64,000 nt of DNA from Bacteroidota bacterium. Lineage in GTDB: Bacteria > Bacteroidota > Bacteroidia > Bacteroidales > WCHB1-69. Within the stretch, counting starts at the first letter, position 1, and every line of letters starts with the position of its first letter. Below, piece by piece: positions 41,733 to 62,827 of this stretch. Location: positions 15,458 to 79,457 of the forward strand of contig JBAXTE010000003.1 of assembly GCA_037130365.1 (NCBI GenBank), in the 5' to 3' direction. The notes under the pieces are model-generated. The model was not told the DNA's origin. It did not search any database and saw nothing but the letters and a program-made list of their open reading frames with translations. Position numbers and translations under genes: made by a program.

Positions 41733-41808
41733 TGCCTGCCACGACTTGGCGTGGCCGAACTCAAAGATATTTTATATGCTAGATTGGCTTGTCCAGCTTT
41801 AGCGGGAT
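41733..41808. repeat. Dispersed short repeat, expanded copy in inverted orientation relative to 25434-25476
   Basis: The reverse complement reads ATCCCGCTAAAGCTGGACAAG...(about 40 nt)...CACGCCAAGTCGTGGCAGGCA. Confidence 0.55.
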
Positions 41809-42202: not shown

Positions 42203-42210
42203 TAAGTTTG
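42203..42210 (+). promoter_or_regulatory. Candidate -7 box TAnnTTTG (taagtttg)
   Basis: 19 nt upstream of the ATG at 42229, after a roughly 550-nt non-coding stretch. Confidence 0.4.
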
Positions 42211-42228
42211 TAGAGTAAAAAAACTTAT

Positions 42229-42828
42229 ATGATTATAGTTGGTGCAGGTTCTTCAGGTAAAGAAACCTTAGGTATGATGATACTACAATCGATTCCATTT
42301 GATGAAATTGTTTTTTTTGATGATAATTATAAAGGCTCAAACCTAATATTTGGCAAATATCAAGTTATTACGGATGTTAACAAAATGGAGTCTTACATAA
42401 ATGAATATGCGGATTTCTGTATAGCAGTTGGTAACCCACGGATTAGAGAAAAGCTATATTCAAAAATGATTTTATGGGGTGGAAAAGCAAAAAACATCAT
42501 TTCTCCAAGCTCGTATTGCATTAGTACAATAAGTGAAAACGGAACAATTATCCAACCAGGTGTTTCAATTTCTTATGATTTTCAAAGCGGGAAATCATGC
42601 ATTATTCACTCAAACAGCGTTATTGGACACAAAGTAATAATTGGAGATTTTGTTAACATAAGCCCACTGGTTTCGATTGTAGGTCCCTTAAGTATTGGAG
42701 ATTATTCTTACGTTGGGGCGGGCTCAGTAATATTGCCAAATATTAAAATTGGTAAAAACGTCTATATCTCTGCAGGTTCTGTAATTGAAAAAGATGTAGC
42801 AGATTTTGAAACAATACATAGAAAATGA
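42229..42828 (+). CDS. NeuD/PglD-family left-handed beta-helix sugar acyltransferase (paralog A)
   Basis: MIIVGAGSSGKE Rossmann-like N-domain plus hexapeptide repeats (IGHKVIIGDFVNISP, IGDYSYVGAGSVI, IGKNVYISAGSVI). Confidence 0.8.
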   Translation: MIIVGAGSSGKETLGMMILQSIPFDEIVFFDDNYKGSNLIFGKYQVITDVNKMESYINEYADFCIAVGNPRIREKLYSKMILWGGKAKNIISPSSYCISTISENGTIIQPGVSISYDFQSGKSCIIHSNSVIGHKVIIGDFVNISPLVSIVGPLSIGDYSYVGAGSVILPNIKIGKNVYISAGSVIEKDVADFETIHRK

Positions 42829-43052
42829 GGCATAGAACAAAACTTATTTTGTCACAAAACAACTTAATTTTTTCGTTCTGTTAAGTTTAATTTATTATTT
42901 CAATTAAAAAAAATCAACGACATTCGCTTCGGGAAAAATGTTTGAGTAATCTGACAAACTTGCTTTAATATATTTGGATTAAGCTATTGGTTTAGTTTCA
43001 ACTCTATAACCGCAAATTAACCTATTTGAATAATACAACAAATAAAAAAGTA

Positions 43053-43060
43053 TATCTTTG
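43053..43060 (+). promoter_or_regulatory. Candidate -7 box TAnnTTTG (tatctttg)
   Basis: 17 nt upstream of the ATG at 43077. Confidence 0.4.
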
Positions 43061-43076
43061 TGTACTTAATGTTAAT

Positions 43077-44066
43077 ATGAAAATGAAAATTTTACTCACA
43101 GGTGGTTTAGGTTTTATTGGTTTTCATACTGCTAAATTATTGGAAGAGAGCACAAATCATCATCTTCTTATTGTTGATGCATATAGAGAATATATCAAAC
43201 ACGACGTAAAATTCAATCCCTATATTCGCCGAGGTTCTATGATTCAAAAGTCGAATATTATCCAAGGGAATTGCAGTAATTTTTCATTTATTAAACAGAT
43301 TATTCAGGATTTTCAGCCCGAAATCATTATACATTTTGCCTCTTTACCCATTGTTTGGAAAGCTGAAAACTGGCCTGAATTAGCACATCAAGATATTGAA
43401 GAGAGTTTTAAATCAGTACTTGCAGGTTGTGAAGAAACATCACAGGTCCCCAAAAAAATCATTTATATCTCCTCATCTATGGTTTATGGTCATTTTATGC
43501 GCGACCAATTTCAAAATCTGATACCTGCAATTGAAAATCAAGCCATTACTCCGATAGATGTGTACGGTAGATGCAAAATGTTTTGCGAAAACATGCTTAC
43601 CGATTTTGCAAAAAAAACAAATTCAAATTATATTATTATTAGACCCTCAGCTGTTTATGGTCCAGAAGATTATAACAAAAGAGTGGTTGAGGCATTTTTA
43701 AAAAACGCGATTCAACATAAAGAAATTATAATTAGTGGAAATGGCGAATTAACGCTTGATTTCACCTATGTTGATGACCTAGCCAAAAGCATTTCACAAT
43801 GTATAGAAACGGATATTAGAAACGAAACATTTAATATAACTTTCGGACATGGATACACCATTAATGAATTGGCAAATATTGTTAAGCAATTGATTCCGAG
43901 TGCTAATATTAAGCATGGATTATTAGCTCCAAATCGACCAAATAGAACCTATTTAAACATCGAAAAGGCAAAAACTTTATTGGGTATAAATCCTCAAACA
44001 TCCTTAGAACAAGGCGTCGAAAAATATTATAAATACCTCATAGACCATCGTATTTATGAACAATGA
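43077..44066 (+). CDS. NAD-dependent sugar-nucleotide epimerase/dehydratase (extended SDR)
   Basis: ILLTGGLGFIGFH and YGRCK (YxxxK). ATG at 43077 preferred over the TTG at 43026. Confidence 0.8.
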   Translation: MKMKILLTGGLGFIGFHTAKLLEESTNHHLLIVDAYREYIKHDVKFNPYIRRGSMIQKSNIIQGNCSNFSFIKQIIQDFQPEIIIHFASLPIVWKAENWPELAHQDIEESFKSVLAGCEETSQVPKKIIYISSSMVYGHFMRDQFQNLIPAIENQAITPIDVYGRCKMFCENMLTDFAKKTNSNYIIIRPSAVYGPEDYNKRVVEAFLKNAIQHKEIIISGNGELTLDFTYVDDLAKSISQCIETDIRNETFNITFGHGYTINELANIVKQLIPSANIKHGLLAPNRPNRTYLNIEKAKTLLGINPQTSLEQGVEKYYKYLIDHRIYEQ

Positions 44067-45147
44067 AATAAAAATCCCATTTATTGATATCAGTAGGTTT
44101 AATAAGGAATTTAACACCGACATTAATCAAATTTGCTCCGACGTATACTCCTCGGGTCAACTGATGAATGGCGAACAGACCAGAAATTGTGAAGAAAAAC
44201 TTTCGGCAATTTATTCTTATCCAGAAACCGTAATGACTGGGAGTTGTACCGATGCCCTTTATTTTGCAATGAAAGCGCTTAATATTGGAGTTGGCGATGA
44301 GGTAATCGTGACAGTTTTATCGTTTATTGGCACGCTAAGCCCAATTCTTCGTGCAGGTGCCGTTCCAGTTTTTGTTGATATTAATCCAAGTGATGGATTG
44401 ATGGATATTGATCAGATTGAGTCAAAAATTGGCCCTCGTACAAAAGCAATAATTGCGGTACACCTTTATGGCAAGGTGCTGAATATGTGTAAATTGAACA
44501 AACTTGCAGAAAAGCACAATCTGCTGGTGATTGAAGATGCTGCACAGTCGATAGGTATAGTTGCAGAATATGGAAATTCAATAAAACCGGATGCAATTTG
44601 CTTAAGTTTTGATCCCACAAAGGTGATTCATGCATTTGGTAGTGCAGGTGCCGTAATATGCAGAGACCAACTTCTGGCAAAAAAAATCAGACAAATTCGG
44701 TATCATGGTAAATCGGGTAATGATTTCGAAATACTTGGGTATAATTCTCGGATAAATGAAGTGCAGGCAGCATTAGTACTCTTTCAAATGGATAAATTTG
44801 AAAAAATAATTCAAGCGCGAAAAGCTATTGCAGAAATGTATGTTGCAGAATTATCTAACGTCTCAGAAATAGTTTTACCAGCAGTAAATACTCCCTCAAA
44901 TTTTCATAAATTCGTAATTCATCATCCCAATCGGAATGAGTTAAAGAAATTTTTGGAGATAAATGGAGTACAAACCATGATTCATTACGAAAAATGTTTG
45001 AATGAATATTCAATTTATAAAACGGATGAAGTGTTTACAAATGCAAAAAGAATAAATAATAGCTGTTTAAGTTTACCCATCTATTATGGATTAAATTCTA
45101 ATGATTTACACATTATAATTAATCTGTTAAAAAGTTTTAATCACTGA
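44056..45147 (+). CDS. DegT/DnrJ/EryC1 PLP sugar aminotransferase
   Basis: IPFIDISRFNKEF, GSCTDALYFA, GDEVIVTVLSFIGT, and SFDPTKVIHAFGSAGAV (Lys). Confidence 0.85.
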   Translation: MNNEIKIPFIDISRFNKEFNTDINQICSDVYSSGQLMNGEQTRNCEEKLSAIYSYPETVMTGSCTDALYFAMKALNIGVGDEVIVTVLSFIGTLSPILRAGAVPVFVDINPSDGLMDIDQIESKIGPRTKAIIAVHLYGKVLNMCKLNKLAEKHNLLVIEDAAQSIGIVAEYGNSIKPDAICLSFDPTKVIHAFGSAGAVICRDQLLAKKIRQIRYHGKSGNDFEILGYNSRINEVQAALVLFQMDKFEKIIQARKAIAEMYVAELSNVSEIVLPAVNTPSNFHKFVIHHPNRNELKKFLEINGVQTMIHYEKCLNEYSIYKTDEVFTNAKRINNSCLSLPIYYGLNSNDLHIIINLLKSFNH

Positions 45148-45282
45148 CATTTGGTTTTTTTTTTAGTTCTGTATGATTTTGTTATTTATGAAATCAATTT
45201 GCTTTCTAAATTCGATTTTTGATAGTTTATATTTTTTACTGGATTGTGAAATTAAATTTTAATGCCAACAAAAATTATTAAC

Positions 45283-45290
45283 TACCTTTG
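45283..45290 (+). promoter_or_regulatory. Candidate -7 box TAnnTTTG (tacctttg)
   Basis: 24 nt upstream of the ATG at 45314. Confidence 0.4.
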
Positions 45291-45313
45291 TTTCATTCTT
45301 AATTTAGATTCTT

Positions 45314-45904
45314 ATGATTATTATTGGAGCAGGAAATTTAGGCAAACACATTCTAGATCAGTTGTTACAAGACAAATACACTGATGAAATTTTGTTTTTT
45401 GATGAACAAATATCCGATGATTTTATCTATGGAACATTTCGAATTATTCATGATTGGAAGACCTTTGATGAATTGATTAAAATGGATCAAAAATTCATTA
45501 TTGCAATTGGTAATTCTCGAAAAAGAGAAAAAATGTTTCTTAAGATTAAAACAGGGAACTACAGGTCGGTAATATCTACACATGCAAATTTTATTTCTAC
45601 TTTTTGCACAATTCATACTGGTACGATTATTCAACCAGGTTGTTGCATTTCTCATAATGTAATCATAGGTAATTCAGTAATTCTACATGCAAACACGTTG
45701 GTTGGTCACGACGTTACTATAGGAAATTTTGCAACAATTGGATCAAATGTAAACATACTTAAAGGAGTTAATATTGGAGAATACTCTACAATAAGCCCAA
45801 ATGTATTGATTTATCCAAATATTAAAATTGGTCGTAACGTTTTTATAGCACCCGGGGCAATTGTGAAAACAGATATTGAGGATTATAAAACTCTTTGTGA
45901 CTAG
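45314..45904 (+). CDS. NeuD/PglD-family left-handed beta-helix sugar acyltransferase (paralog B)
   Basis: MIIIGAGNLGKH plus hexapeptide repeats. Collinear similarity with the 42229-42828 product. Confidence 0.8.
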   Translation: MIIIGAGNLGKHILDQLLQDKYTDEILFFDEQISDDFIYGTFRIIHDWKTFDELIKMDQKFIIAIGNSRKREKMFLKIKTGNYRSVISTHANFISTFCTIHTGTIIQPGCCISHNVIIGNSVILHANTLVGHDVTIGNFATIGSNVNILKGVNIGEYSTISPNVLIYPNIKIGRNVFIAPGAIVKTDIEDYKTLCD

Positions 45905-46005
45905 AAATAATGCCTAATTAGTGTCTGCGAAAGAAACAAAGAAGTATACATTTTAGCTTCGCTGAGCTCTCTGCCAGCTGGCGGATCAGTTCTTGAAAGT
46001 ACTAA

Positions 46006-47118
46006 CTATTCTTTTTTAAACACCCCACCAAAATTCGTCATCCTTTGATAATTTTTAAAATTTTTGTAGGTTTCATTTTCCAGTTTTAACAATTCCTCAT
46101 CCGAAAGTTCATCAATAAAACAAGTTGGATCTTCGCCCATAATATCTCCATTGTGGTAATAAGCCATAACTCTACAGCCACCACAAGTGAAATTAAATTT
46201 GCATGAACCACATTTTCCTTTAAGCTCCGAGCGATTTACCACCGTTTTAAAGAGATTAGATTCAAACAAAATTTCACGCAAATCTTGCGTGTAAACATTT
46301 CCGCCCGATACATGGTCTAATAAAAGTGGACAAGGAGCGACTTCACCTTCCGCATTTATTCCATAAAATGAGCCCACCCAACAGCCTATAGAAGGGTTTG
46401 TTGGAACAATATTCGTATTATGATCTTGCCCTGAGTGTTTTAAATAATCGGTTTCATTTAGAAATAGAGGAACATAACTTACATATCCTCTAAAATATTT
46501 TAAAAGCGATGGATGAATTTTGTCTCTCATCGTCTCTTTGTCAATCATCAAATTTTTACAATCTGAATTTCTTGGCGAAAAAGGGATTCTATTGTATGGT
46601 AATTTTAATGAGTTTATATTAGAAATGGTAGCCTCAAAGCTATCAGAATTGAATTTCCCAACGGTAACACAAAGATTAATTGTGATGTTGTTTTTCTCCA
46701 ATAATTCGATTAATTCAAGGGTTTTCGAAATGTCAAAATCTCGAGTTTCAATGTTTTTATCATCAAAAGAATTCACCCCCAAAGAAATTAAAATATTATC
46801 TCCTAATGTGACTCTTAACTTATCAATAATTTCTTGATTCATCATTTTACCATTCGTAACAATCGATATTCTAAAGCCTATATCATTTGCTTCTTTAAGC
46901 AAAGTAAATGCATCTTTTCTCAGAAGAAACTCACCTCCCGAAAAATCTATCATTCTAGTCCCCAATTCCCAAGCTGGTTTAAAAATACGGTTTACAATAC
47001 TGAAAGTCGGAATATCTGTATACTTCTGTTTTACATTAGACTTAGTAGAGCAATATTGGCAATTTAAATTACAGTTGCGAGTAGCTTCAAAATATAGAGT
47101 GTGAAAAAGTGGTTGCAT
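46006..47118 (-). CDS. Radical SAM enzyme with C-terminal SPASM domain
   Basis: The CX3CX2C cluster is in ATRNCNLNCQYCS. The SPASM cysteines are CWVGSFYGINAEGEVAPC, CGSCKFNFTCGGC and DPTC. Start set at the ATG at 47118 (M21 of the track ORF), which has a minus-strand TAnnTTTG box 10 nt upstream. Confidence 0.85.
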   Translation of the reverse strand: MQPLFHTLYFEATRNCNLNCQYCSTKSNVKQKYTDIPTFSIVNRIFKPAWELGTRMIDFSGGEFLLRKDAFTLLKEANDIGFRISIVTNGKMMNQEIIDKLRVTLGDNILISLGVNSFDDKNIETRDFDISKTLELIELLEKNNITINLCVTVGKFNSDSFEATISNINSLKLPYNRIPFSPRNSDCKNLMIDKETMRDKIHPSLLKYFRGYVSYVPLFLNETDYLKHSGQDHNTNIVPTNPSIGCWVGSFYGINAEGEVAPCPLLLDHVSGGNVYTQDLREILFESNLFKTVVNRSELKGKCGSCKFNFTCGGCRVMAYYHNGDIMGEDPTCFIDELSDEELLKLENETYKNFKNYQRMTNFGGVFKKE

Positions 47119-47128
47119 CTTTTTTAAA

Positions 47129-47136
47129 CAAAGGTA
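47129..47136 (-). promoter_or_regulatory. Candidate -7 box TAnnTTTG (tacctttg on the minus strand) for the SPASM radical SAM gene
   Basis: Plus-strand caaaggta at 47129-47136, 10 nt upstream of the minus-strand ATG at 47118. Confidence 0.4.
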
Positions 47137-47167
47137 GAAAAAAGAAAGAAATCTTGCATTAATAATG

Positions 47168-47175
47168 TATATTTG
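47168..47175 (+). promoter_or_regulatory. Candidate -7 box TAnnTTTG (tatatttg) for the FAS-like operon
   Basis: 31 nt upstream of the ATG at 47206, back to back with the minus-strand box at 47129-47136. Confidence 0.4.
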
Positions 47176-47205
47176 CAACAGTCATTTCAAGATAATTTCG
47201 CATAA

Positions 47206-48009
47206 ATGAATTACAAAAATAACTTTTGGGCTTTTATTCTTGGTGGAACAGGTAGCTTTGGTTTAGCCACTGCAAAACTTTTAGCATCTAAAGGATTTAA
47301 TTTAATACTTGTTTATCGCGAAACAAAGGGAAATATTCAAAACCTTAATTCTGAGTTTGAGATATTGAAACAACAGTGTGATGTAATTCAGTTCAATTTA
47401 AACGCAAACGAACCCGAAAATCAAAATATTATCGTTGAAACATTACTTAAATATCCTGAAATAAAAAACAAAATATCTTTTTTGCTTCACGCCATTGCTG
47501 ATGGGAATCTCAGACCGTTATTTGCAAATAATGAGGATTCAATTGAAGAGCTAAACATAGAAGACTTTCACCATACAATTAAATCTATGGGAACAAGCTT
47601 GTATCTATGGACACAACTTTTATTTAAAAATGATTTTTTTGCAGAAAATTCTTCTGTTCTAGGGCTAACTAGTGAAGGTTCTACTCGGTTTTACAATAAT
47701 TATGCAGCGGTGGCATCTGCAAAGTCAGTAATGGAATCTAATATGCGATATATTGCAGTTGAATTAGCAAAATATGGTATTAGAGCAAATCTTTTAAATG
47801 TGGGCATTACTGATACCCCAGCGCTTAAGTCTTTTCCCGATTATAAATTATTTATTGATAGGGCAAAAGAGAGAAATCCAGCAAAGCGTCTCACAACTCC
47901 AGAGGATGTTGCAAAGGTAATTGCATTTATGGCTTCAGGTGATTCTCAATGGATAAATGGGACGATTATTACTGTTGATGGTGGAGAACAATTAATAAGT
48001 CTTTATTAA
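47206..48009 (+). CDS. FabL-like enoyl-[acyl-carrier-protein] reductase (SDR with Y-x6-K)
   Basis: LGGTGSFGLA glycine motif and YNNYAAVASAK (a Y-x6-K catalytic dyad as in FabI/FabL, not YxxxK). The C-terminal half (RYIAVELAKYGIRANLLNVG..TDTPALKSFP...NGTIITVDGGEQL) closely follows the FabL pattern as I recall it. Confidence 0.7.
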   Translation: MNYKNNFWAFILGGTGSFGLATAKLLASKGFNLILVYRETKGNIQNLNSEFEILKQQCDVIQFNLNANEPENQNIIVETLLKYPEIKNKISFLLHAIADGNLRPLFANNEDSIEELNIEDFHHTIKSMGTSLYLWTQLLFKNDFFAENSSVLGLTSEGSTRFYNNYAAVASAKSVMESNMRYIAVELAKYGIRANLLNVGITDTPALKSFPDYKLFIDRAKERNPAKRLTTPEDVAKVIAFMASGDSQWINGTIITVDGGEQLISLY

Positions 48010-48449
48010 TGGAAATATCCGATAAAATTATTCAAGCTTTGCCGTATGGTAATACTTTTCGTTTTGTAGATTCAATTGAACGAGTTGATGAGGATACCAT
48101 TATCGGCAACTATACTTATAAAGAAGATTTGCCATTTTACCATTCGCATTTTCAAGGAAATCCAATAGTCCCAGGTGTTATCATTATTGAGACTATGGGC
48201 CAAATCGGAATGGTTTGTCACCTAATTTATCTATCAAATGATTATTCATTATCCACTCTGCCATTACTTTCAAATTTGGAGGCAGAGTTTTATTGTAACG
48301 CAAATTACAATGAACCTATTAAAGTAATTGGACGAAAAATTTATTTTAGGCGAAACATTCTAAAATCATCGATTGAAATGAGAAAGCTAGACGATACTCT
48401 CATCGCCACACTAACTGCATATATATCCAAAATGCCAAAATGCCAATGA
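48009..48449 (+). CDS. FabZ/FabA-like 3-hydroxyacyl-ACP dehydratase (hot-dog fold)
   Basis: The motif YHSHFQGNPIVPGVIIIETMGQ matches the FabZ active-site region (HF...P..PGV...E...Q). Confidence 0.85.
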   Translation: MEISDKIIQALPYGNTFRFVDSIERVDEDTIIGNYTYKEDLPFYHSHFQGNPIVPGVIIIETMGQIGMVCHLIYLSNDYSLSTLPLLSNLEAEFYCNANYNEPIKVIGRKIYFRRNILKSSIEMRKLDDTLIATLTAYISKMPKCQ

Positions 48450-50993: not shown

Positions 50994-51021
50994 TTTTGCT
51001 CTATCATAAATACCAAAAATT

Positions 51022-51264
51022 ATGGACGAAAATAAGAATAAAGTTATCGAGATTCTTAAAAAGTATACTTTTAATGAATCTGTTTGGGATAACTATACTG
51101 AAAACTCAAAAATCATTGTTGATTTAAAAATCAATTCTGCCCGAATTGTTGATATAATTCTAGATGTTGAGGATGAATATGGGATCGTTATTGACGATTA
51201 TTTGCTCGAAAAACTAATTACGATTAAAGATATATTGGATATTATTGAACAAAAAAGAAAATAA
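51022..51264 (+). CDS. Acyl carrier protein (phosphopantetheine-binding)
   Basis: 80 aa and acidic. DLKINSARIVDIILDVEDEYG corresponds to the DLG.DS....E helix-II region, with the Ser as the attachment site. Confidence 0.7.
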   Translation: MDENKNKVIEILKKYTFNESVWDNYTENSKIIVDLKINSARIVDIILDVEDEYGIVIDDYLLEKLITIKDILDIIEQKRK

Positions 51265-51341
51265 CGAATATTTTAAAATCGTTGTTTTACTGCATTTAAA
51301 CTACATTTTTTGTTGTCTTTTGTCTGCTAATATTAATTCGA

Positions 51342-52304
51342 ATGGGAACACCTATTTTAAGTATCGGAATCATCTCTTATAATCAAGCTGAATTTATCGA
51401 AAAAGCGATTAATTCGGTTATGGCACAGCAAACCCAATATCCTTTTGAGTTGATTATTTGTGACGATGCATCAGAAGACAATACCGACGACATTGTCAAT
51501 GGATTATTGCGAGGGGTTAGCTTTTCCACACAATATGTCAGAAACAAAACTAGAAAAGGGCCACTTTTAAACGGTAAAAACTTCATAAAACATGCTTCTG
51601 GAAAGTATCTTTGCTGGATGGATGCCGATGATTATTGGTGCTATGAAAATAAAATTCAAAAACAAATTGACTTTTTAGAATCCAATTTAGATTATAATGG
51701 TTGCTTTCATGATGCCAAAATAATCTCGGATATTGAGATAAACGAAGATCTTTCTGAGCAATTGAAGGAACAAACACATGGTAGATGGAAAAGTTATTCG
51801 CAGTTTAATACGTATCAATCCGACTTTTATCCTTGGGATGTATTACAGCGCAAAATTATTCCAACGGCTTCATTAATGATTCGGAATAGGGATTTAAACC
51901 ATTTCCTCGAAAAGCATTTAGATGTAAATTTATCTGTTAGTTGGGCATTACATTTAGAGCTAATAAAAAATAGTAAGTTTAAGTATTTCAACGAATTATG
52001 GTCGGTTTATTTTGATCATGCCAAAGGCTTTTCAAAGAGTATCGACCTAGTTACTTTTAAACTAAATAATATTCAAATTTTATTCAAATTATTAGATGAT
52101 GCGTATTATAGTGCCTTAAAAAAAGATGTTTATCGAGCCATTGCTAACGAGTACTACTTTTTACTTCATAGCGCTGAAGCACAAAAACGAAGTACTAAAG
52201 AGTATCGAGATTATTGCAAGGCCTATACAAAATGGGCTGATAAGGCTACCAAAGAAGATGTTGAAAGATTTAAAACCACTCATAAACTTAAAAACCAACA
52301 GTAA
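51342..52304 (+). CDS. Glycosyltransferase family 2
   Basis: LSIGIISYNQAEFIEKAINSV...ELIICDDASEDNT and a later DADD motif. Confidence 0.85.
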   Translation: MGTPILSIGIISYNQAEFIEKAINSVMAQQTQYPFELIICDDASEDNTDDIVNGLLRGVSFSTQYVRNKTRKGPLLNGKNFIKHASGKYLCWMDADDYWCYENKIQKQIDFLESNLDYNGCFHDAKIISDIEINEDLSEQLKEQTHGRWKSYSQFNTYQSDFYPWDVLQRKIIPTASLMIRNRDLNHFLEKHLDVNLSVSWALHLELIKNSKFKYFNELWSVYFDHAKGFSKSIDLVTFKLNNIQILFKLLDDAYYSALKKDVYRAIANEYYFLLHSAEAQKRSTKEYRDYCKAYTKWADKATKEDVERFKTTHKLKNQQ

Positions 52305-54092
52305 ATGTGTGGAATCCTCGGGAAAGTAAGTTTTAATGCACCGATTGATCAAGATGAGTTTGTTGCTCAGCGAGATACAATGACTTCTAGAGGCCCGAAT
52401 CAAGAAGGGTTGTATTTTAATTCCGCCAAAAAAATTGCTCTTGGATATCGCCGATTAAGTATCAATGATTTAAGCGAATTAGGCAATCAGCCTATTTCTA
52501 ACGAGGACTCAACAATCTTTTTAATATGTAATGGCGAAATATATAATTCACCCAAGTTAAAGGAAGAACTTATTAAATTAGGTCACCATTTTAAAAGTCG
52601 CTCAGATGCAGAAGTTATCATTCATGGATACGAAGAGTGGGGAACAGAAATTCTAAAAAGAGTTGAAGGCATGTTTGCTTTTGGAATATGGGATTCAAAA
52701 AAAGATGAACTAATCGTTGCCAGAGACAGATTTGGCATAAAACCACTTTATTTCGAAAGTAATGATGAAAGTTTCACCTTTGCATCTTCACTTAACGCTA
52801 TTATTACGGCAAAAAATCATCACAAAAAGTTAGATTTTTCATCCATTTGCGATTATCTAACGTATCGTTATGTACCTTCGCCAAAAAGTATTTATCAAGG
52901 AATCTGCAAACTCGAGCCCGCTCAATTTTTGGTATTAACTGCTCAAAAAAAGGTTCAAATTCAATATTATTGGGCAATAGAGTACAAACCTATAAAAATG
53001 TCACCCGCTGAGGTTCAGAAACAATTTGAGCATTTATTACGACAATCGGTACGCAAACATTTAATGAGCGACGTGCCCGTAGGTTCCTTTTTGAGCAGTG
53101 GCTACGATTCATCTACGTTGGCTTTATTGATGACCGAAGAAAATTATCAGCCTCAAACATTTAGTTTAGGGTTTTCTAATTGGGAAGAAAGTGAACATTT
53201 GATTGCGCAAAAAACGGCCGATATATTAAAACTCAATAATCATTCGTTGATCATTGATTTTAAGGATTTTATACCCGAAAACTTTATCGATGCATACGAT
53301 GAACCTATTGCTGATATTTCTACAATACCCACTTTTTGCATCAGTAATTTTGCGTCAAAGAAAGTTAAAACAGTTTTTTCGGGCGAAGGAGCAGACGAAC
53401 TTTTAGGCGGGTATGATTGGCATCGTAAAATAATGCAAAAGTACAATCAACGATCAATTTCTGATAGGTTATTTAGAGATTTTAATCCTACAGCAATCGA
53501 AATTTATAAGGAGTATATGGCGATGGGCAAATTTGACCGTGATGAATTACTAAAACTCTTTTCCCCAGAGCACCATTATCAAATTCCCGAAAATCCGTAT
53601 TGGTTTTTTGAGCAAAGTTTTAGAAAAGATTTGCCTTTATTAAAGGCGATTCAATATATGGATATCAGGGGCTTTATGGGGGAGTTAGTACTTAGTAAAA
53701 TTGACCGCTCAAGTATGGCACATTCCCTAGAAGTTAGAGTCCCATACTTAGACTATGACTTATTTGATTTTTTGTTTAATCTTGAGCCAGATGCTTATTT
53801 CTCGTTAGTGGAACAAAAAAAACTTCTTGTAAACCTTCTCAAACCCAAACTGCCACATGTTGTAAATCGCAAAAAACAAGGATTTGTAGGACCTAACGAA
53901 TATTACAATCGAGTAGAATTATATAAGGATATTCTTAAAAACTCTAAATTAGAAGATCTCGGTATTCTAAATAAGAAGTATTTATTACAATTATTTTCCA
54001 ACAATGATATGTGGAGAATTTGGAAATTAGTACTTTTGGAGTTATGGCTACAACATAATTTTGGCTCAAACAGTTCGTTAAAATCAAACTAA
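52305..54092 (+). CDS. asnB: Asparagine synthase (glutamine-hydrolysing) family amidotransferase
   Basis: N-terminal nucleophile MCGI, GNQP, the RGPD-like RGPNQEG, and a PP-loop-like FLSSGYDSS in the synthetase domain. Confidence 0.85.
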   Translation: MCGILGKVSFNAPIDQDEFVAQRDTMTSRGPNQEGLYFNSAKKIALGYRRLSINDLSELGNQPISNEDSTIFLICNGEIYNSPKLKEELIKLGHHFKSRSDAEVIIHGYEEWGTEILKRVEGMFAFGIWDSKKDELIVARDRFGIKPLYFESNDESFTFASSLNAIITAKNHHKKLDFSSICDYLTYRYVPSPKSIYQGICKLEPAQFLVLTAQKKVQIQYYWAIEYKPIKMSPAEVQKQFEHLLRQSVRKHLMSDVPVGSFLSSGYDSSTLALLMTEENYQPQTFSLGFSNWEESEHLIAQKTADILKLNNHSLIIDFKDFIPENFIDAYDEPIADISTIPTFCISNFASKKVKTVFSGEGADELLGGYDWHRKIMQKYNQRSISDRLFRDFNPTAIEIYKEYMAMGKFDRDELLKLFSPEHHYQIPENPYWFFEQSFRKDLPLLKAIQYMDIRGFMGELVLSKIDRSSMAHSLEVRVPYLDYDLFDFLFNLEPDAYFSLVEQKKLLVNLLKPKLPHVVNRKKQGFVGPNEYYNRVELYKDILKNSKLEDLGILNKKYLLQLFSNNDMWRIWKLVLLELWLQHNFGSNSSLKSN

Positions 54093-54138
54093 CTATGCTC
54101 AAGAAGAAACTTTGTACATCTTTATTAAGACTTGGAAT

Positions 54139-55530
54139 ATGATGAGGGCAATTCAAAAAACCATCAATAAGTTAATATTTAAATGTCGGCTTAAAGAATA
54201 CAATAAAACTAGAAATAATGGCAATGTGATCTTTTGCTATGCCCCTTCAAAAGCATTGAGATTTTCGCTTAACGGACATGCTTTTGTTTGTTGTTTTAAT
54301 AGATTAAATTCACTTGGAAGATATCCGATCAATTCAATATCAGATATTTGGAATAATTCAATTAAAGAAGATTTACATAAATCAATAAATTATAAACAAA
54401 ACAATACTCTTGGTTGCCATTATTGCTACGATACAATAATGAGTAAGAGTTTTCATCTTACGGGTGCTAGAAATTATGACAATTATAATAATGAAGTAAC
54501 AAGTAATTATCCTTTATTAATTGATTTTGAACTTAGCAATACGTGTAATCTAAAATGCATCATGTGTAATGGAGAAAACTCAAGTAGCATTCGAAGTCAG
54601 ATTGAAAACAAAGACAACTACCCCAATTATTACGATGATTACTTTTTAGAACAATTAACCGAATTTATCCCATATTTAAAAGAAACCAGATTTTCTGGAG
54701 GAGAACCATTTTTAATTGATTTATATTATGATTTATGGGATAAGATACACAGCATAAACCCTTTATGCAAAATAATAATTCAAACAAATGGTACTATTAT
54801 TAATGAAAAGATACTAGAACTCTATTCGAAATACAACTTTCATTTATCATTTTCTATCGATTCTGTGAATAAAACCACATACGAGTCCATTCGAATTGGT
54901 GCTTCATTTGAAAAAGTAATGAGCAATTTCGAAATCATACATAAGTTATCACAAAAATTAAATCGTGAAATCGGTGTAAGCATTTGTATATTAAAAAACA
55001 ATATTCGTGAATTTAGAGATTATGTAAATTACTTTAATAATTTGAACACAAAAATCACGATTCATAAAGTATTAACTCCAATTAATCATAGTATATATTC
55101 ACTATCAATTTCTGAATTAGAATCCATAAAAAAAGATTTTATCAGTTACAAGTTCACTTCTAAAAATTCTATTGAAGAGTGGAATAACAAACTTTTCAGT
55201 AGTGTAGTATTTTTTATTGAATCGGTTTTAAAGCTAAAAAAAGCAAATGATTCAAATAAGGAAATTCAAACCAGTAAAAACAGTAGAGCGGCATTTATAT
55301 CAATAATACAAAGGGTAATAAATGATAATGTTAGTGCCATTCCTAAAGAAATACTTATTGAAAAAATCGAGGAGTTAATTTTAAATATTGATAAAATTCA
55401 AAATTCAAAAGAAGTCTATGATAACATTATACATCTTCCGGATGAATACATAATATCAGAACTAAACATAAACGATATTGATCGGATTATAAGTCGAATT
55501 ACTGCAAATAAAAATCATAAGAATGATTGA
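54139..55530 (+). CDS. Radical SAM protein with N-terminal twitch/SPASM-like Cys motif (paralog 1)
   Basis: N-terminal CYAPSKALRFSLNGHAFVCC...IWNNSIKEDL...GCHYC, followed by the core SNTCNLKCIMCNG (CX3CX2C). ATG at 54139 preferred over the TTG at 54112. Confidence 0.8.
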   Translation: MMRAIQKTINKLIFKCRLKEYNKTRNNGNVIFCYAPSKALRFSLNGHAFVCCFNRLNSLGRYPINSISDIWNNSIKEDLHKSINYKQNNTLGCHYCYDTIMSKSFHLTGARNYDNYNNEVTSNYPLLIDFELSNTCNLKCIMCNGENSSSIRSQIENKDNYPNYYDDYFLEQLTEFIPYLKETRFSGGEPFLIDLYYDLWDKIHSINPLCKIIIQTNGTIINEKILELYSKYNFHLSFSIDSVNKTTYESIRIGASFEKVMSNFEIIHKLSQKLNREIGVSICILKNNIREFRDYVNYFNNLNTKITIHKVLTPINHSIYSLSISELESIKKDFISYKFTSKNSIEEWNNKLFSSVVFFIESVLKLKKANDSNKEIQTSKNSRAAFISIIQRVINDNVSAIPKEILIEKIEELILNIDKIQNSKEVYDNIIHLPDEYIISELNINDIDRIISRITANKNHKND

Positions 55531-56902
55531 AAAATTTCACAAAAATAGATTGATTACAAAATACAAAAAGATAAGAGAGCAGCCCGATGCTCCTATTTGT
55601 TTGGCCCCTTTTAATTCGCTTTTTTTTGCCCCTTACGGAAGAATTATGTCTTGTTGGTATAATAAAAGAGAGCCCTTAGGCAATTATCCAGAAAATTCGA
55701 TTCAAGAAATTTGGTTTGGAGAAAAACTTGAAAACTTAAGAAAACATTTGCTTAAATACGATTTCTCACAAGGATGTGAAGTTTGTTATGCACATTTAAA
55801 AAAGAAAAACTTTTATTCTGTAGATGCAAATAGATACGATTATTTAGCCCAAGGTGATGGCAATCATCCTTCCTCTTTTGAGTTTCAGATTAGCCACCAA
55901 TGCAACTTTGAGTGCATTATGTGCAATGGTGAACTATCTTCGGGTGTAAGGCAAAATAGGGAAATGATGGATATGTACAAAAATCCTTACGACGAAAATT
56001 TTGTGATTCAACTATTGCCATATTTGCCATATCTTAAGGATGCTGCTTTTTCGGGTGGGGAACCTTTTTTAAATAAAATATATTTTGATATTTGGGAACA
56101 TTTAGCACAATTAAATCCAGAGGTAAAAATATCATTAACCACAAACGGGAGTATATTAAATGCTAAGGTAAAAGAGTATTTGAACAAATTGAAGTTTAAT
56201 ATTTCAATCTCTATCGACTCTCTGAATGAGGAGAATTATTCCTTAATTCGAAAAAATGGTGACTTGCAAAAGATGTTGGATAATTTTCAATATTTTTTAT
56301 CATACACCCGAGAAATAGGCACTTCTATGTCTATTAAAACCTGTCCGATGAAGCAAAATATTTTTGAAATACCTCTCATTTTAGAATTTGCCAACACACA
56401 AAATGTCCCAGTTTTTTTTAACACTGTAATTTATCCTCCTAATTGCACTTTAATCAACCAAAAATCAGAGAAATTGAAGGAGCAAATTATATTTCTTAAG
56501 TCTTATACATTCGATAATTCAGAAAATAAATGTGGTAATTTTAATCGATATTTTGCTTTAATACAACAAATTGAAGGGTGGTACGAGGATTCAATAATTC
56601 GCGAGAAGAACTATAAAAATTCAGTATTGAATTATGAGTACTTTATGAAAGTAGTAATTAAGAATGTTGCTCTATTTGTCAACGAGAATTCCGATTTCCC
56701 CGCAAAAGTAAAGAACCTTAAAATTATGTATTATAAAGACTTTTTAACTGAGGTTTTTGACTTAATTGTTGAAGAGCAAACAAAACTGTCAGCAGTTAAA
56801 TACCTATCCGAAATACCAATTTTTAGATTGTTATCAGAAATTGAATTTCGAGATCCACAACGATTAGCAGACCGACTTATTTATTCAAATTATAATGATT
56901 AG
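55523..56902 (+). CDS. Radical SAM protein with N-terminal twitch/SPASM-like Cys motif (paralog 2)
   Basis: CLAPFNSLFFAPYGRIMSC...IWFGEKLENLRKHL...GCEVC, then SHQCNFECIMCNG. Collinear with the preceding ORF (FSGGEPFL, TNG.I.N, SIDS motifs shared). 8-nt overlap. Confidence 0.8.
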   Translation: MIEKFHKNRLITKYKKIREQPDAPICLAPFNSLFFAPYGRIMSCWYNKREPLGNYPENSIQEIWFGEKLENLRKHLLKYDFSQGCEVCYAHLKKKNFYSVDANRYDYLAQGDGNHPSSFEFQISHQCNFECIMCNGELSSGVRQNREMMDMYKNPYDENFVIQLLPYLPYLKDAAFSGGEPFLNKIYFDIWEHLAQLNPEVKISLTTNGSILNAKVKEYLNKLKFNISISIDSLNEENYSLIRKNGDLQKMLDNFQYFLSYTREIGTSMSIKTCPMKQNIFEIPLILEFANTQNVPVFFNTVIYPPNCTLINQKSEKLKEQIIFLKSYTFDNSENKCGNFNRYFALIQQIEGWYEDSIIREKNYKNSVLNYEYFMKVVIKNVALFVNENSDFPAKVKNLKIMYYKDFLTEVFDLIVEEQTKLSAVKYLSEIPIFRLLSEIEFRDPQRLADRLIYSNYND

Positions 56903-56940
56903 ATAGATTTTTTTACTTAAGATATTAATAATCAAAAATT

Positions 56941-58311
56941 ATGAGATTTTGTGTACTCAATATTCCAAATGATAAAAAAATTATTCGCAAATACTCATGC
57001 TCTTACTATGCCAACGGCTTTTTATATCCACCAATCGAATTATTAAGAGTTGCAACAATTATAAAAGAAAGAGTCTCCATAAATAACGAGATTTTATTTT
57101 TAGATGCAATTGCAGAGAACTTAAACGAAAAAAGATGCATTAAACAAATTATTGAATTTGCTCCTGATTATCTTATAACATTAATATCAGTTGACTTTAG
57201 TAATTCTGAAAAAAGCTTCATTGCCAATTTAAAAAAAATATTTGAGGTAAAAGTTATAGCGATTGGATATTTGCCAGATTTGTATCCTCAATGTTTTCCT
57301 GTATTTGATGTGATTTTAGGTTCTGATTTTGAAAGCAGATTTTTTAAGGTTTTAGATAAAGAAAAAAATGATGATTTTTTAAACAAGCTAAAAATTGCAA
57401 CTGAACCCAATGTGTTTAATGCTGATATTATTAAAGGATGTGACTATTCTTTTTTGAATTCAAAAAATTATTATGAATTTTTAGCCAATGGAAAAACTGC
57501 ATTTACCTATTTTTCATTTGGTTGCCCCTATAAATGCTCTTATTGTATCAGAACCTATAATTTGGACTCGGTGTTTTTTAGAAATACTAAAAGCATTTTG
57601 GATGAACTTAGTTTCTTTGACTCCAAAGGATATTCGAATGTACGAATAATGGACGATAACTGCACATTAAGTAAGTCATTATTAAACGAGATAAAAGATT
57701 ATTGTGAACAAAATATGCTCCATTTTAATTTTTATGGACTCACCCGAATTGATTTAATAGATGATGAAATTGTCGAAATTTTAAAGAAATTAAATTTTAA
57801 ACGAATTTTTATTGGGATTGAATCTTTTGATATTCATAGAATAAATGAATATCGAAAGGGTAAATATATTGATTTAAAAATTGTTAAGGATAAAATTAAT
57901 AAATTAGTTAAATCCGGGATTGAAGTAGGAGTATTTTTGCTGTTTAATCCTTTAAATGAGGATTGGACATCTGTAAAAAAATCTCTCAAAATTTTAAAAT
58001 CATTACCAATTCAACATGCTGGAATTTCGTATCTAGTCCCTTATCCTGGAACATCATATTATGAGGATAATTATGAGAACATTCGAATGGAGTTTAGTCC
58101 AGATTATTCAATAAAGTATAAAGTTAAAAATCACTCATTAAATATTCTAACTCAGTATTACTTCTATATTATGTTTTATTTATTTAATAGGAAAAGGGTT
58201 CTTAAGTCTTTTGGGCATTTATTATTCTATCCAAAACAAATAATCACGATTATAGTCAATTTGTTTTTTCGTTTTTTTAAAGGGAAAAGAGAGAGAATAG
58301 ATTTTTCATAG
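56941..58311 (+). CDS. B12-binding-domain-type radical SAM protein with hydrophobic C-terminal tail
   Basis: The N-terminal YPPIELLRVATIIKE...FLDAIAE...PDYLITLIS pattern resembles cobalamin-binding domains. The core is FSFGCPYKCSYC (CX3CX2C). The C-terminus YYFYIMFYLF...IITIIVNLFF is hydrophobic. Confidence 0.65.
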   Translation: MRFCVLNIPNDKKIIRKYSCSYYANGFLYPPIELLRVATIIKERVSINNEILFLDAIAENLNEKRCIKQIIEFAPDYLITLISVDFSNSEKSFIANLKKIFEVKVIAIGYLPDLYPQCFPVFDVILGSDFESRFFKVLDKEKNDDFLNKLKIATEPNVFNADIIKGCDYSFLNSKNYYEFLANGKTAFTYFSFGCPYKCSYCIRTYNLDSVFFRNTKSILDELSFFDSKGYSNVRIMDDNCTLSKSLLNEIKDYCEQNMLHFNFYGLTRIDLIDDEIVEILKKLNFKRIFIGIESFDIHRINEYRKGKYIDLKIVKDKINKLVKSGIEVGVFLLFNPLNEDWTSVKKSLKILKSLPIQHAGISYLVPYPGTSYYEDNYENIRMEFSPDYSIKYKVKNHSLNILTQYYFYIMFYLFNRKRVLKSFGHLLFYPKQIITIIVNLFFRFFKGKRERIDFS

Positions 58312-58315
58312 AACA

Positions 58316-62803: not shown

Positions 62804-62827
62804 CTTTAAAAAAATCTATATTAAGAT

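Follow-up and report, generated by a model that had tools for sequence, protein, structure and literature searches.

Does a block of amino-sugar genes, fatty-acid-synthase-like (FAS) genes and four radical SAM genes, found in a Bacteroidota MAG within a surface-glycan locus of 64 kb, encode one pathway, and what would its product be? To address this question we analysed the whole stretch of 64,000 nucleotides (hereafter the window), and in particular positions 42229-58311, for which a first-pass annotation had proposed that an acyl chain is built, transferred to an amino sugar and then tailored by the radical SAM enzymes and amidated by AsnB. The best overall explanation, to which we give an even chance of being right in full, is that the block, conserved in uncultured Bacteroidota, is a cassette for glycan decoration made of two separable modules. 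Judged from genes, motifs and synteny, the most probable role of this cassette is to equip an amino sugar of a surface polysaccharide with a purpose-built acyl chain.

The block and its surroundings

All 15 genes of 42229-58311 are intact and follow the order first described, as family searches and separate gene calls on the source contig concur. The surface-glycan setting was likewise confirmed: family searches across the window identified nonulosonic-acid genes, a Wzx flippase, glycosyltransferases, carbamoyltransferases and WbqC. To the left of the block lies a GDSL-family esterase/acyltransferase-like gene (40528-41679, + strand; gene call Lipase_GDSL), homologs of which (33-41% identity) occur in 17 loci bearing the cassette or twitch-type radical SAM genes, frequently adjoining the acyltransferase and DegT genes. 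To the right, on the opposite strand and convergent (58316-63724), family matches identified a 489-aa polytopic membrane protein, two small proteins, a DUF6056 polytopic membrane protein and a GT9 glycosyltransferase, the two polytopic proteins having ~11 TM-like segments each. In one related locus, L004, the cassette is similarly trailed by the 489-aa protein (50%), a 138-aa protein (45%) and GT9 (56%).

Counterparts of the cassette, with 35-77% protein identity, are present in at least 40 loci from metagenomes or MAGs, and the acyltransferase, DegT, dehydratase, ketosynthase and acyl carrier protein genes (35-75% identity) are kept together across these loci. Seven of the carriers are genome loci (L003, L004, L014, L036, L040, L069 and L079), and ~30 metagenome loci with orthologs of the SPASM radical SAM enzyme at 52% identity or more also bear it; the carriers are MAGs or metagenomes throughout. 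Recurrence in so many independent loci shows that these genes have not come together by chance.

Amino-sugar and acyl-chain genes

Module A (42229-51264) comprises amino-sugar genes, PglD-type acyltransferase(s), a SPASM radical SAM gene and a private set of enoyl-ACP reductase (ER), dehydratase (DH), one or two ketosynthases (KS) and acyl carrier protein (ACP). The two acyltransferases, AT1 (42229-42828, +) and AT2 (45314-45904, +), are 40% identical and belong to the PglD/NeuD family of left-handed beta-helix (LbH) N-acyltransferases: they match PglD_N (48.7 and 42.4 bits) and Hexapep (57.4 and 61.1 bits) and score just under the TIGR03570 cut-off of 160.8 (146.5 and 135.1, respectively). 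AT1-type orthologs (50-56%) adjoin DegT in many cassette loci; AT2 adjoins the SPASM gene, as do its orthologs (47-64%) in L003, L036 and L085-L089. The extended SDR gene (43083-44066, +; likely true start 43083, within a mechanical ORF from a TTG at 43026) encodes an epimerase-like protein (Epimerase, 117 bits) with the 6ZL6 family, GalE and UDP-GlcA decarboxylases as closest PDB entries; it carries SSSMVYG, as opposed to the TDEVYG motif of 4,6-dehydratases, and its orthologs adjoin DegT/SPASM genes in L102, L111 and L121. The DegT/DnrJ/EryC1 aminotransferase (44056-45147, +; PF01041, 291.5 bits) has PseC and WecE-type enzymes as top NCBIfam models, all under cut-off, and 7B0D ("glutamine--scyllo-inositol transaminase"), QdtB, WbpE and NtdA as closest PDB entries; the two sets of matches disagree as to a 4- or a 3-aminotransferase. 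Together, the SDR and DegT enzymes would supply a nucleotide-linked amino sugar with its amine at C3 or C4.

The SPASM enzyme is, as always in the cassette, encoded divergently between the acyltransferase and FAS genes (46006-47118, -; the likely start at 47118, within a mechanical ORF to 47178, is predicted from the ortholog alignment and the gene call). It is AhbD/NirJ-like (Radical_SAM 71 bits, SPASM 28.4 bits), although its top NCBIfam models, AhbD (132.9) and NirJ2 (116.5), are both far under cut-off. In an alignment of six orthologs (mean column identity 69%) the CNLNCQYC motif and seven C-terminal Cys are invariant. Orthologs at 52% identity or more lie nearly always within the cassette and homologs at 43% or less outside it; in a few loci (L100, L107) the gene stands amid unrelated genes.

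The FAS-like genes open with a FabL-like ER (47206-48009, +), an SDR with a Y-x6-K motif whose best NCBIfam model is FabL (134 bits, cut-off 328) and whose best PDB match is B. subtilis FabL (3OIC, E 2.5e-23; NYAAVASAK aligned to NYTTVGVSK); it is missing from many two-KS variants of the cassette. The FabZ-like hotdog DH (48009-48449, +; FabA/FabZ family PF07977, 38.9 bits), kept in nearly all cassette loci, matches FabZ models at E 3e-11, under cut-off, as well as ApeI-like models weakly, and retains the His/Glu motif HFxxxPxxPGV...E (HFQGNPIVPGVIIIETMGQ). Two FabF-like ketosynthases follow, KS1 (48440-49723, +; ketoacyl-synt N and C domains) and KS2 (49716-50993, +; FabF model 263.7 bits, cut-off 493.75), and as initially claimed the Cys-His-His residues are intact in both (Cys171/His313/His349, together with Lys344). 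KS2 is the conserved enzyme, orthologous (46-62%) to the single KS of most relatives; KS1 is an extra one, with orthologs (56-60%) only in two-KS loci (L069, L088, L093-95, L098-101, L103). The private ACP (51022-51264, +) was recognized by NCBIfam ACP models only (E 3e-9, under cut-off) and had no Pfam match in the domain search; its Ser lies within DLKINSARIVD, its placement after the KS is conserved (51-75% identity), and an ACPS-type PPTase gene stands beside it in L003, L069, L079, L104 and L106. The set had been called a private FAS-II. Its ER, DH, KS and ACP components are indeed present, but no ketoreductase, FabD or FabH was found in this cassette or in any relative's cassette, so that the chain chemistry would rest on borrowed housekeeping enzymes.

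All chemical steps in this account are inferred, as are how long the chain is and that its product sits at the surface. The ER, the DH and one or two KS would assemble, on the private ACP, an acyl chain other than acetyl, with malonyl loading and keto-reduction borrowed from the housekeeping FabD and FabG and probably one defined condensation per KS. One PglD-family transferase is predicted to N-acylate the sugar amine from acyl-ACP, and the other probably N-acetylates; the SPASM enzyme would act by radical chemistry on the amino sugar, with or without its acyl group, and need not touch the chain itself. The transfer of an ACP-built chain to an amino sugar by an LbH acyltransferase, already put forward in the first-pass annotation, is well supported by the conserved synteny and intact motifs. 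It is also the logic proposed for the Flavobacterium psychrophilum O-polysaccharide, in which wfpC and wfpE (KS), wfpD (ACP), wfpF (ketoreductase) and wfpG (a PglD homolog) would place a 3,5-dihydroxyhexanoyl group on Qui2NAc4N (PMC6519341); the earlier statement that no comparable pathway is known was therefore too strong for the FAS and PglD part.

The FAS gene set occurs in three main forms (ER+DH+KS, DH+KS+KS and ER+DH+KS+KS). In L165, whose DNA is ~95% identical on both flanks, a different single KS and ACP replace 48486-51106 (KS1-KS2-ACP), and KS1 is absent. The three forms and this swap between near-identical strains fit, and suggest, a variable acyl epitope. Alternatively, the chain might be long: a private KS might extend a housekeeping acyl group once onto the private ACP, LbH N-acylation then yielding a glycolipid or the lipid anchor of an exported polysaccharide instead of a short antigenic side group. 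Pairing of a DH with a KS, the ER being optional, is reminiscent of the FabA/FabB and FabN/FabO pairs at the branch point of unsaturated fatty-acid synthesis; in addition, the best PDB match of AT2 is the acyl-ACP-dependent LpxA, with LpxD also listed, many related loci have Wzm/Wzt export, and genes for GT9 and polytopic membrane proteins lie just beyond the block. We nevertheless consider such a long chain rather unlikely, as the LpxA and LpxD matches are repeat-driven and no stronger than those to PerB or PglD (VioB being matched as well), two-KS loci without ER and the two-to-one KS swap fit defined short chains better, and the sole precedent is a C6 group (PMC6519341).

GT2, amidotransferase and twitch radical SAM genes

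Module B (51342-58311), which is separate from module A, consists of a GT2 glycosyltransferase, a glutamine-dependent AsnB and N-terminal-twitch radical SAM enzymes. The GT2 (51342-52304, +; PF00535, 83.5 bits) is soluble, no TM-like segment being found in it, and is always immediately upstream of AsnB in relatives. AsnB (52305-54092, +) scores 422.7 bits with TIGR01536, over the cut-off of 267.1, and 432.8 with the EPS-associated TIGR03108, under the cut-off of 816.9; its N-terminus, MCGI, keeps the glutaminase Cys. The two twitch enzymes, Tw1 (54139-55530, +; likely true start 54139, within a mechanical ORF from 54112; 463 aa in the gene call) and Tw2 (55523-56902, +), are 36% identical and score 141.6 and 149.4 bits with NF033640 (cut-off 170). 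Tw2, which belongs to a family of 1021 50%-identity clusters at E<=1e-30, has a SPASM Pfam match at residues 26-88, and C26/C44/C85/C88 and C127x3Cx2C134 are invariant in the alignment. A search with its AF2 model (pLDDT 93) returned generic radical SAM cores only (TM about 0.34). Its N-terminal domain aligns, over only ~75 residues, with the twitch of BtrN, including the auxiliary-cluster ligands C169/C187/C232/C235. The last gene (56941-58311, +) had been annotated as a B12-type radical SAM enzyme. It is a radical SAM protein (Radical_SAM, 54.3 bits only), but no B12-binding Pfam match was found in it; it is best described as class-B-like, matching the BchE, HpnR, HpnJ and AprD4 models at E 1e-14 to 1e-10, far under cut-off, with AprD4 (6FD2, E 4e-5) as sole PDB match. 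A 57% ortholog adjoins Tw2 in L007.

Sugars are more likely than the acyl chain to be the substrates of the radical SAM enzymes and AsnB. BtrN matches the twitch domain Cys for Cys, and AprD4 is the nearest match of the third radical SAM enzyme. The GT2 would add a residue and AsnB would amidate a carboxyl, converting a uronic acid to a uronamide by analogy with WbpS-type enzymes; the twitch pair, most likely by BtrN-like oxidation of a secondary alcohol, and the AprD4/BchE-like enzyme would tailor sugar residues by radical chemistry. Three uncharacterised radical SAM enzyme families stand beside a probable acyl-amino-sugar cassette.

These assignments bear on the single linear pathway, in which all four radical SAM enzymes would modify a sugar-bound chain (C-methylation, desaturation, C-C chemistry) and AsnB would amidate it. 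The genes of 47206-58311 are tightly packed on one strand, operon-like, and the full ER/DH/KS/ACP-GT2-AsnB-Tw-Tw set recurs as a whole in L003, L004, L036, L040, L069, L079 and L165. However, among 78 genome loci found via the twitch radical SAM genes (arrays of 1-7 per locus; AsnB in 19), FAS genes are present in 7 and absent from 71: module B is far commoner without them, in Wzm/Wzt-type glycan loci with GT1/GT2/GT32-like transferases, UbiA, AsnB, GDSL proteins and methyl-, sulfo- and carbamoyl-transferases, and L013, L015 and L037 have FAS-free GT2-AsnB-twitch units. Moreover, the SPASM gene accompanies the extended SDR, DegT and acyltransferase genes alone, without FAS genes, in L111 and L121, the third radical SAM enzyme is not constant in the cassette, and the nearest solved relatives of the twitch domain and of that third enzyme, BtrN and AprD4, have amino-sugar or cyclitol rings as their substrates. 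The claim that these enzymes tailor the acyl chain was thus not upheld, and we regard the single linear pathway as unlikely. The G+C content changes stepwise at ~54 kb, in keeping with a separate origin of the module B part.

It is highly improbable that the block makes a diffusible type II polyketide, aryl-polyene-like lipid or RiPP and merely sits in a glycan locus: despite the weak ApeI/ApeP-like matches of the DH, lasso-cyclase and sactipeptide models among weak matches, and the frequency of radical SAM/SPASM and AsnB homologs in RiPP clusters, (i) the active-site Cys kept in both KS leaves no chain-length-factor partner, (ii) the 64 kb hold no ketoreductase, thioesterase, MMPL/LolA-type exporter or Ape-type methyltransferase, (iii) the intergenic gaps, below 80 bp, leave no room for precursor peptides, (iv) the SPASM enzyme begins straight at its radical SAM core, without an N-terminal peptide-recognition domain in the ortholog alignment, (v) AsnB has its glutaminase Cys and scores over the asparagine-synthase cut-off, and (vi) in ~110 related loci the neighbours are glycan genes.

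The divergent promoter region

The region between the SPASM and ER genes (47119-47205) contains the two back-to-back TAnnTTTG boxes noted at the outset, TACCTTTG at 47129-47136 (-) and TATATTTG at 47168-47175 (+), and TAAGTTTG lies 26 bp upstream of AT1. Across the window TAnnTTTG shows no overall enrichment (109 matches, 115 expected); its enrichment is positional: of 54 genes, 13 have a copy in sense within the 5-70 bp before their start, compared to 2.6 expected.

Gene content of the 42229-58311 block

Gene calls made independently on the source contig (ENA ERZ4201038 NODE_48, 166 kb) matched an ORF list in giving 15 genes at 42229-58311, and the families named for them in the first-pass annotation were each borne out by Pfam and NCBIfam scans. 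The left part of the block (Module A, 42229-51264) comprises two PglD_N-plus-hexapeptide transferases (AT1 and AT2, of the PglD/NeuD family and 40% identical to one another), an extended SDR (extSDR) and a DegT aminotransferase, then a Radical_SAM plus SPASM protein encoded on the minus strand (46006-47118), and finally the acyl-building genes: an SDR for which FabL is the best model (ER), a FabA/FabZ hotdog protein that keeps the FabZ His/Glu motif (DH), two FabF-like ketosynthases (KS1 and KS2) and a small ACP-like protein with a Ser in 'DLKINSARIVD'. The active sites of both ketosynthases are intact, as had been claimed, with Cys171, His313, Lys344 and His349 kept in each. The ER aligned to Bacillus subtilis FabL (PDB 3OIC) with an E-value of 2.5e-23 and its 'NYAAVASAK' falls on the Y-x6-K of FabL; because of this alignment and motif match, an enoyl reductase is better supported than a ketoreductase, in agreement with the initial call. 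The HMM scores of the ACP are under the cut-off; its position is kept among relatives, in some of which a PPTase gene adjoins it.

The right part of the block (Module B, 51342-58311) encodes a soluble GT2, which is the upstream partner of a glutamine-dependent AsnB, followed by two radical SAM enzymes with an N-terminal twitch domain (Tw1 and Tw2) and a third radical SAM protein (56941-58311) with weak matches to models of the BchE/HpnR/HpnJ/AprD4 type. In the NCBIfam scan, AsnB was the sole block protein above a curated equivalog cut-off (TIGR01536, 422.7 bits for a cut-off of 267.1) and, with its N-terminal MCGI carrying the nucleophile Cys, it is by these matches a genuine glutamine-dependent amidotransferase. 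The best model for Tw1 and Tw2, NF033640, aligns along most of its length with both proteins at 141.6 and 149.4 bits, below its cut-off of 170; judged by these alignments, they are close relatives just beyond the curated threshold.

The back-to-back TAnnTTTG boxes noticed at the divergent SPASM gene are present, at 47129-47136 on the minus strand and 47168-47175 on the plus strand. The motif is not enriched over the window as a whole (109 matches, 115 expected). In sense orientation and 5-70 bp upstream of a start codon, it precedes 13 of 54 genes (2.6 expected), including AT1, extSDR, AT2, SPASM and ER.

Conservation, modularity and variation of the cassette

Relatives of the block were collected from two independent starting points, the twitch radical SAM end and the SPASM end. 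At the twitch end, an alignment of 31 family members was used to scan one genome per species, which yielded 78 loci; all block proteins were compared with these loci by tblastn and gene maps were drawn. The full cassette was found in L003, L004, L014, L036, L040, L069 and L079, with protein identities of 33-77% and the shared order DegT, PglD-type AT, divergent SPASM, (ER) DH KS (KS) ACP (PPTase), GT2, AsnB, twitch enzymes. The company of the FAS set and the twitch enzymes, first noticed in the window alone, recurs in seven genome loci. At the SPASM end, an alignment of six orthologs was used to scan metagenome contigs, giving 80 loci. In 38 of the 80 the SPASM protein is at least 52% identical to that of the block, and cassette neighbours are almost always present where the contig is long enough, whereas the 42 loci with at most 43% identity have cassette neighbours in no case. 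Because the neighbours split between these two identity classes, the SPASM protein is an orthogroup tied to the cassette. Its conservation is unusually high, with a mean column identity of 69%, versus 35-60% for its neighbours. Judged by this conservation of order and company, the block is a genuine conserved system. A second SPASM radical SAM family (L123-L164), common in metagenomes of soil, peat and sediment, is 39-43% identical to the cassette enzyme and lacks cassette neighbours.

The seven genome loci with the cassette are all of MAG or metagenome origin, as are the named matches in the 120 best SPASM homologs and every twitch homolog of more than 35% identity. The single cultured-isolate record, Ruegeria sp. 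HKCCD8929 (L071), has a twitch homolog of 34% identity and no FAS cassette. As nearly all carriers are MAGs or metagenome contigs, there is no known glycan structure to match.

The two ends of the cassette also occur apart. GT2-AsnB-twitch units without any FAS genes are found in L013, L015 and L037, and FAS genes are absent from 71 of the 78 twitch loci. To survey the neighbours, all ORFs around the twitch loci were clustered and the recurrent clusters annotated. The most frequent companions were a soluble protein of ~410 aa (26 loci), UbiA-type prenyltransferases (22), AsnB (19), GDSL proteins and PhyH dioxygenases (17 each), methyltransferases (15), B12-binding radical SAM enzymes (14), Gly_transf_sug proteins (13), Wzm/Wzt ABC exporters (11 and 10) and DegT (10); GT1, GT2, carbamoyltransferases and sulfotransferases are further neighbours. 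By this company, the twitch radical SAM loci are glycan loci. In L111 and L121 the SPASM gene is accompanied only by extSDR-DegT-AT, from which it follows, on the evidence of synteny, that the SPASM enzyme goes with the amino-sugar genes. A 1411-aa protein that takes the place of the FAS genes beside SPASM in these two loci, encoded divergently, was considered as a type I PKS and proved to be an unrelated glycogen synthase/phosphorylase fusion. The independence of the modules contradicts the first-pass proposal, which assigned tailoring of the acyl chain to the radical SAM enzymes and AsnB.

The acyl-building set itself varies. Among loci it takes the forms ER+DH+KS, DH+KS+KS and DH+KS, and the window has the maximal form, ER+DH+KS1+KS2. 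Most loci have a single KS, to which KS2 is orthologous, and KS1 is an old second KS common to L069, L088 and others. Contig L165 shares ~95% DNA identity with the window over 44185-48486 and 51106-56910; the counterpart of the intervening 48486-51106 (L165:4262-5583) encodes one divergent KS, 54% identical to KS2 at the amino acid level, and an ACP. With KS1-KS2-ACP in one and a single KS plus ACP in the other of two ~95% identical contigs, acyl-building genes have been swapped as one unit between near-identical strains, as would be expected if they determined a variable epitope on the surface. Genes for a ketoreductase, FabD or FabH were found neither in this cassette nor in that of any relative and, because the cassette is without them, the private KS/DH/ER/ACP set must borrow KR, FabD and FabH from primary metabolism.

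A predicted route to an N-acylated amino sugar

The idea that an O-polysaccharide locus combines a private type II FAS with a PglD homolog has been published before and is not unprecedented. In Flavobacterium psychrophilum, wfpC and wfpE (KS), wfpD (ACP), wfpF (KR) and wfpG (PglD homolog) have been proposed, by annotation-based assignment, as the genes for the R-group of the O-polysaccharide, a 3,5-dihydroxyhexanoyl amide on Qui2NAc4N, and radical SAM genes receive no mention for the wfp locus (PMC6519341). Compared by gene descriptions, the two systems are alike in having a private ACP, two KS and a PglD homolog beside an aminotransferase within a Bacteroidota O-polysaccharide or glycan locus, and they share a logic in which the chain is built on the ACP and a nucleotide amino sugar is then N-acylated. 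Both wfp-type features are found in the cassette: the PglD-family N-acyltransferase stands beside a DegT-type aminotransferase in a glycan locus, and the dedicated ACP and the ketosynthases lie in one locus. However, wfp has a KR and no DH or ER, whereas the cassette has a DH, usually an ER, and no KR: it contains no wfpF-like ketoreductase, the sole SDR of its FAS set having the Y-x6-K of FabL/FabI, and a KR-like SDR is absent from every cassette locus compared. With a DH, usually an ER and no KR, the chain would be reduced or unsaturated, not dihydroxy. Unlike wfp, the cassette also includes its own specific SPASM radical SAM enzyme and is linked to the GT2-AsnB-twitch module. The earlier statement that no comparable pathway is known thus goes too far for the FAS and PglD idea, which had been published for wfpC-G. 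Full-text searches on O-antigen and capsule loci that combine FAS-type and radical SAM genes brought up PMC6519341 as the only relevant paper, and radical SAM, twitch or SPASM proteins in such loci are treated in none, a weak negative as coverage was incomplete; a Tenacibaculum O-antigen paper makes no mention of radical SAM, twitch, SPASM or such FAS-type genes.

Two other origins of the acyl-building genes were weighed. An aryl-polyene or flexirubin type II PKS would be in line with the ApeI-like matches of the DH, which are weak only. Both KS keep the Cys, so that there is no chain-length-factor partner, and no KR, Ape-type export, thioesterase or methyltransferase genes are present in the 64 kb; the block is not such a cluster. 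Housekeeping type II FAS genes are rejected by the NCBIfam equivalog models, all scores being far under the cut-offs (FabF 237 and 264 for 493.75, FabZ 43 for 113-155, FabL 134 for 328, ACP 37 for 71).

Module A would then be a route to an N-acylated amino sugar, in which each KS would be responsible for a single defined condensation onto the private ACP, and a PglD-type transferase would pass the finished chain to the sugar amine. This part of the first-pass annotation is well supported by synteny and has the wfp precedent, so that the earlier interpretation as a whole was half right; every step of the cassette's chemistry is one that we infer. Either AT type can be the sole transferase in relatives, so that AT1 and AT2 are both candidates for the user of the acyl-ACP. 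The best solved relatives of extSDR are the family of 6ZL6 (which we take to be a UDP-glucuronate 4-epimerase), GalE and the UDP-glucuronate decarboxylases. At the site of the 4,6-dehydratase motif, where 4,6-dehydratases read 'TDEVYG', it has 'SSSMVYG', and by these features an epimerase or decarboxylase type is a better fit than a 4,6-dehydratase. For DegT, the NCBIfam ranking, with the 4-aminotransferase models PseC and WecE-type on top, would predict a 4-amino product, whereas the closest solved proteins, 'glutamine--scyllo-inositol transaminase' and the 3-aminotransferases QdtB, WbpE and NtdA, would predict a 3-amino product; the two predictions disagree.

The constant pairing of AsnB with a soluble GT2 suggests the carboxyl of the residue added by GT2 as the site of amidation, and AsnB may, by analogy with the uronamide-forming WbpS/WbtH-type amidotransferases of polysaccharide loci, amidate this group. 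AsnB resembles the EPS-associated amidotransferase of TIGR03108 in its strong partial match, N-terminal Cys and glycan locus, and differs from it in scoring under its cut-off and in its constant pairing with GT2 and twitch enzymes.

Bacteroidota surface glycans serve as major antigens and phage receptors and in interactions with the host. To our knowledge, their unusual N-acyl groups are known chemically and hardly at all genetically. The cassette provides a defined, conserved and testable gene set for custom acyl decoration, whose one-KS and two-KS forms differ even between 95% identical strains.

Three radical SAM families and the surroundings of the block

The twitch family (1021 clusters at 50% identity, E-value of 1e-30 or better), with one to seven paralogs per locus in arrays, has a CX3CX2C core and an invariant four-Cys auxiliary-cluster (twitch) domain. 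These features are shared with BtrN, the butirosin 2-deoxy-scyllo-inosamine dehydrogenase and founding twitch-domain radical SAM enzyme: the family-invariant C26, C44, C85 and C88 fall on C169, C187, C232 and C235 of BtrN (domain E-value 2e-8). The partner of BtrN, which acts on an amino-cyclitol, is a DegT-family aminotransferase, and a DegT gene is also present in this locus. However, the twitch domain is N-terminal in the Tw family and C-terminal in BtrN, and the Tw family has in addition a C-terminal helical domain of ~120 residues, seen in the Tw2 model (pLDDT 93), and forms paralog arrays in glycan loci. Foldseek searches with the Tw2 model returned generic radical SAM cores only (viperin, MoaA, BlsE, SkfB; TM about 0.34), and BtrN was not in the top 50 matches; the likeness of the Tw2 fold to any solved radical SAM enzyme is generic and offers no clue to its function.

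Arrays of four to seven twitch genes are found at L003:13618-20853, L062, L049 and L069:9929-18803, often followed by genes for a Gly_transf_sug protein and for a ~410-aa soluble protein that has a GT-A-like 'YLDSD' motif. A 773-aa fusion of a sulfotransferase-like region to a twitch radical SAM enzyme is encoded at L005:11413-13734. Four family members (P0241, P0242, P0251 and P0270; ~870-980 aa) have two matched twitch radical SAM stretches each, and such two-unit fusions suggest that the paralogs work together.

The third radical SAM enzyme (56941-58311) had been called 'B12-type', a label that Pfam does not support: Radical_SAM is the only Pfam match, and the N-terminal B12-binding domain (PF02310) of class B enzymes was not detected. 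A related neighbourhood family that does carry PF02310 (cl7) shares just ~25% identity with it across the core. The enzyme has a radical SAM core, and its best family models are BchE, HpnR, HpnJ and AprD4, with scores far under the family cut-offs. Among solved structures, AprD4 alone proved related to it; AprD4 is a radical diol dehydratase whose substrate is an aminoglycoside sugar. As BtrN and AprD4 both act on amino-sugar or cyclitol rings, these relationships point to radical chemistry on sugars, as a lead only. We know of such chemistry so far only from antibiotic pathways, e.g. BtrN, AprD4 and DesII.

Of the named families, AhbD (133 bits) and NirJ (117 bits) come closest to the SPASM enzyme, at scores far under the cut-offs of 500; both are oxidative decarboxylases of carboxyalkyl groups. 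The SPASM enzyme is like them in its radical SAM core, its seven-Cys SPASM domain and the absence of a peptide-recognition domain, and unlike them in its context of amino-sugar and acyl genes instead of tetrapyrrole genes and in forming a separate, cassette-tied orthogroup. RiPP maturases are rejected for these enzymes, as (i) the intergenic spaces of less than 80 bp leave no room for a precursor peptide, and (ii) the SPASM protein begins at the core and the N-terminal domain of the Tw proteins is a twitch, not a peptide-recognition, domain.

We tentatively propose, as a possibility that we consider rather unlikely than likely, that the three radical SAM families form a toolkit for the tailoring of cell-surface glycans, a role so far undescribed. 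The N-terminal-twitch family would be circularly permuted BtrN-like enzymes for the oxidation or epimerisation of sugar hydroxyls in polysaccharide precursors, and could for example provide keto-sugars for DegT aminotransferases without an NAD-dependent dehydrogenase. The SPASM enzyme would act on the N-acyl amino sugar by radical chemistry, for instance an oxidative decarboxylation of the AhbD kind. If this proposal were true, uncultured Bacteroidia would carry acylated and amidated sugars of a new class. The analysis places three uncharacterised radical SAM families, one with about 1000 sequence clusters, in glycan loci; if even one of them could be given a reaction, many hundreds of environmental and gut Bacteroidota genes would gain an annotation, which makes the cassette attractive for enzymology and for the annotation of environmental Bacteroidota genes.

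The assignment of the region to a surface-glycan locus agrees with the rest of the window, which holds nonulosonic-acid genes, a Wzx-type flippase, GT4, GT2, WbqC and two carbamoyltransferases. The nonulosonic-acid (legionaminic/pseudaminic-type) set at 363-9414 has two NeuB paralogs and consists of DegT, a PglD-like transferase, NeuB, a NeuC-like 2-epimerase, an NTP-transferase with a CBS domain, the second NeuB with SAF, a CMP-transferase, a GFO/IDH oxidoreductase and a class-III aminotransferase. A PD-(D/E)XK nuclease family gene (PDDEXK_3, 132 bits) lies amid glycosyltransferase genes at 20749-21156. Genes left of the block, at 33050-41679, are also found in twitch radical SAM loci of other MAGs: a GFO/IDH oxidoreductase, GT2, a carbamoyltransferase, a 396-aa protein (70% identical to one of L082), a CN-hydrolase (66% identical to one of L049) and a GDSL protein (17 loci). 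Owing to this recurrence, the functional neighbourhood probably reaches left of 42229. Directly upstream of the block are 550 bp without an ORF (41680-42228); an Rfam scan of the entire window found no RNA family.

The G+C content drops from 0.33-0.34 to 0.25-0.29 over 54000-64000, from the AsnB/Tw1 border onward, which suggests a different origin of the twitch radical SAM and downstream membrane-protein genes; the step at the border (0.34 to 0.28) fits a separate history of that part. Downstream of the block, 58316-62803 on the minus strand encodes a 489-aa protein without a family match and a 683-aa protein with DUF6056, both of them polytopic membrane proteins of ~11 TM-like segments. Both of these proteins and a GT9 are kept downstream of the cassette in L004, and the membrane proteins are candidates for a polymerase, a ligase or a GT-C enzyme.
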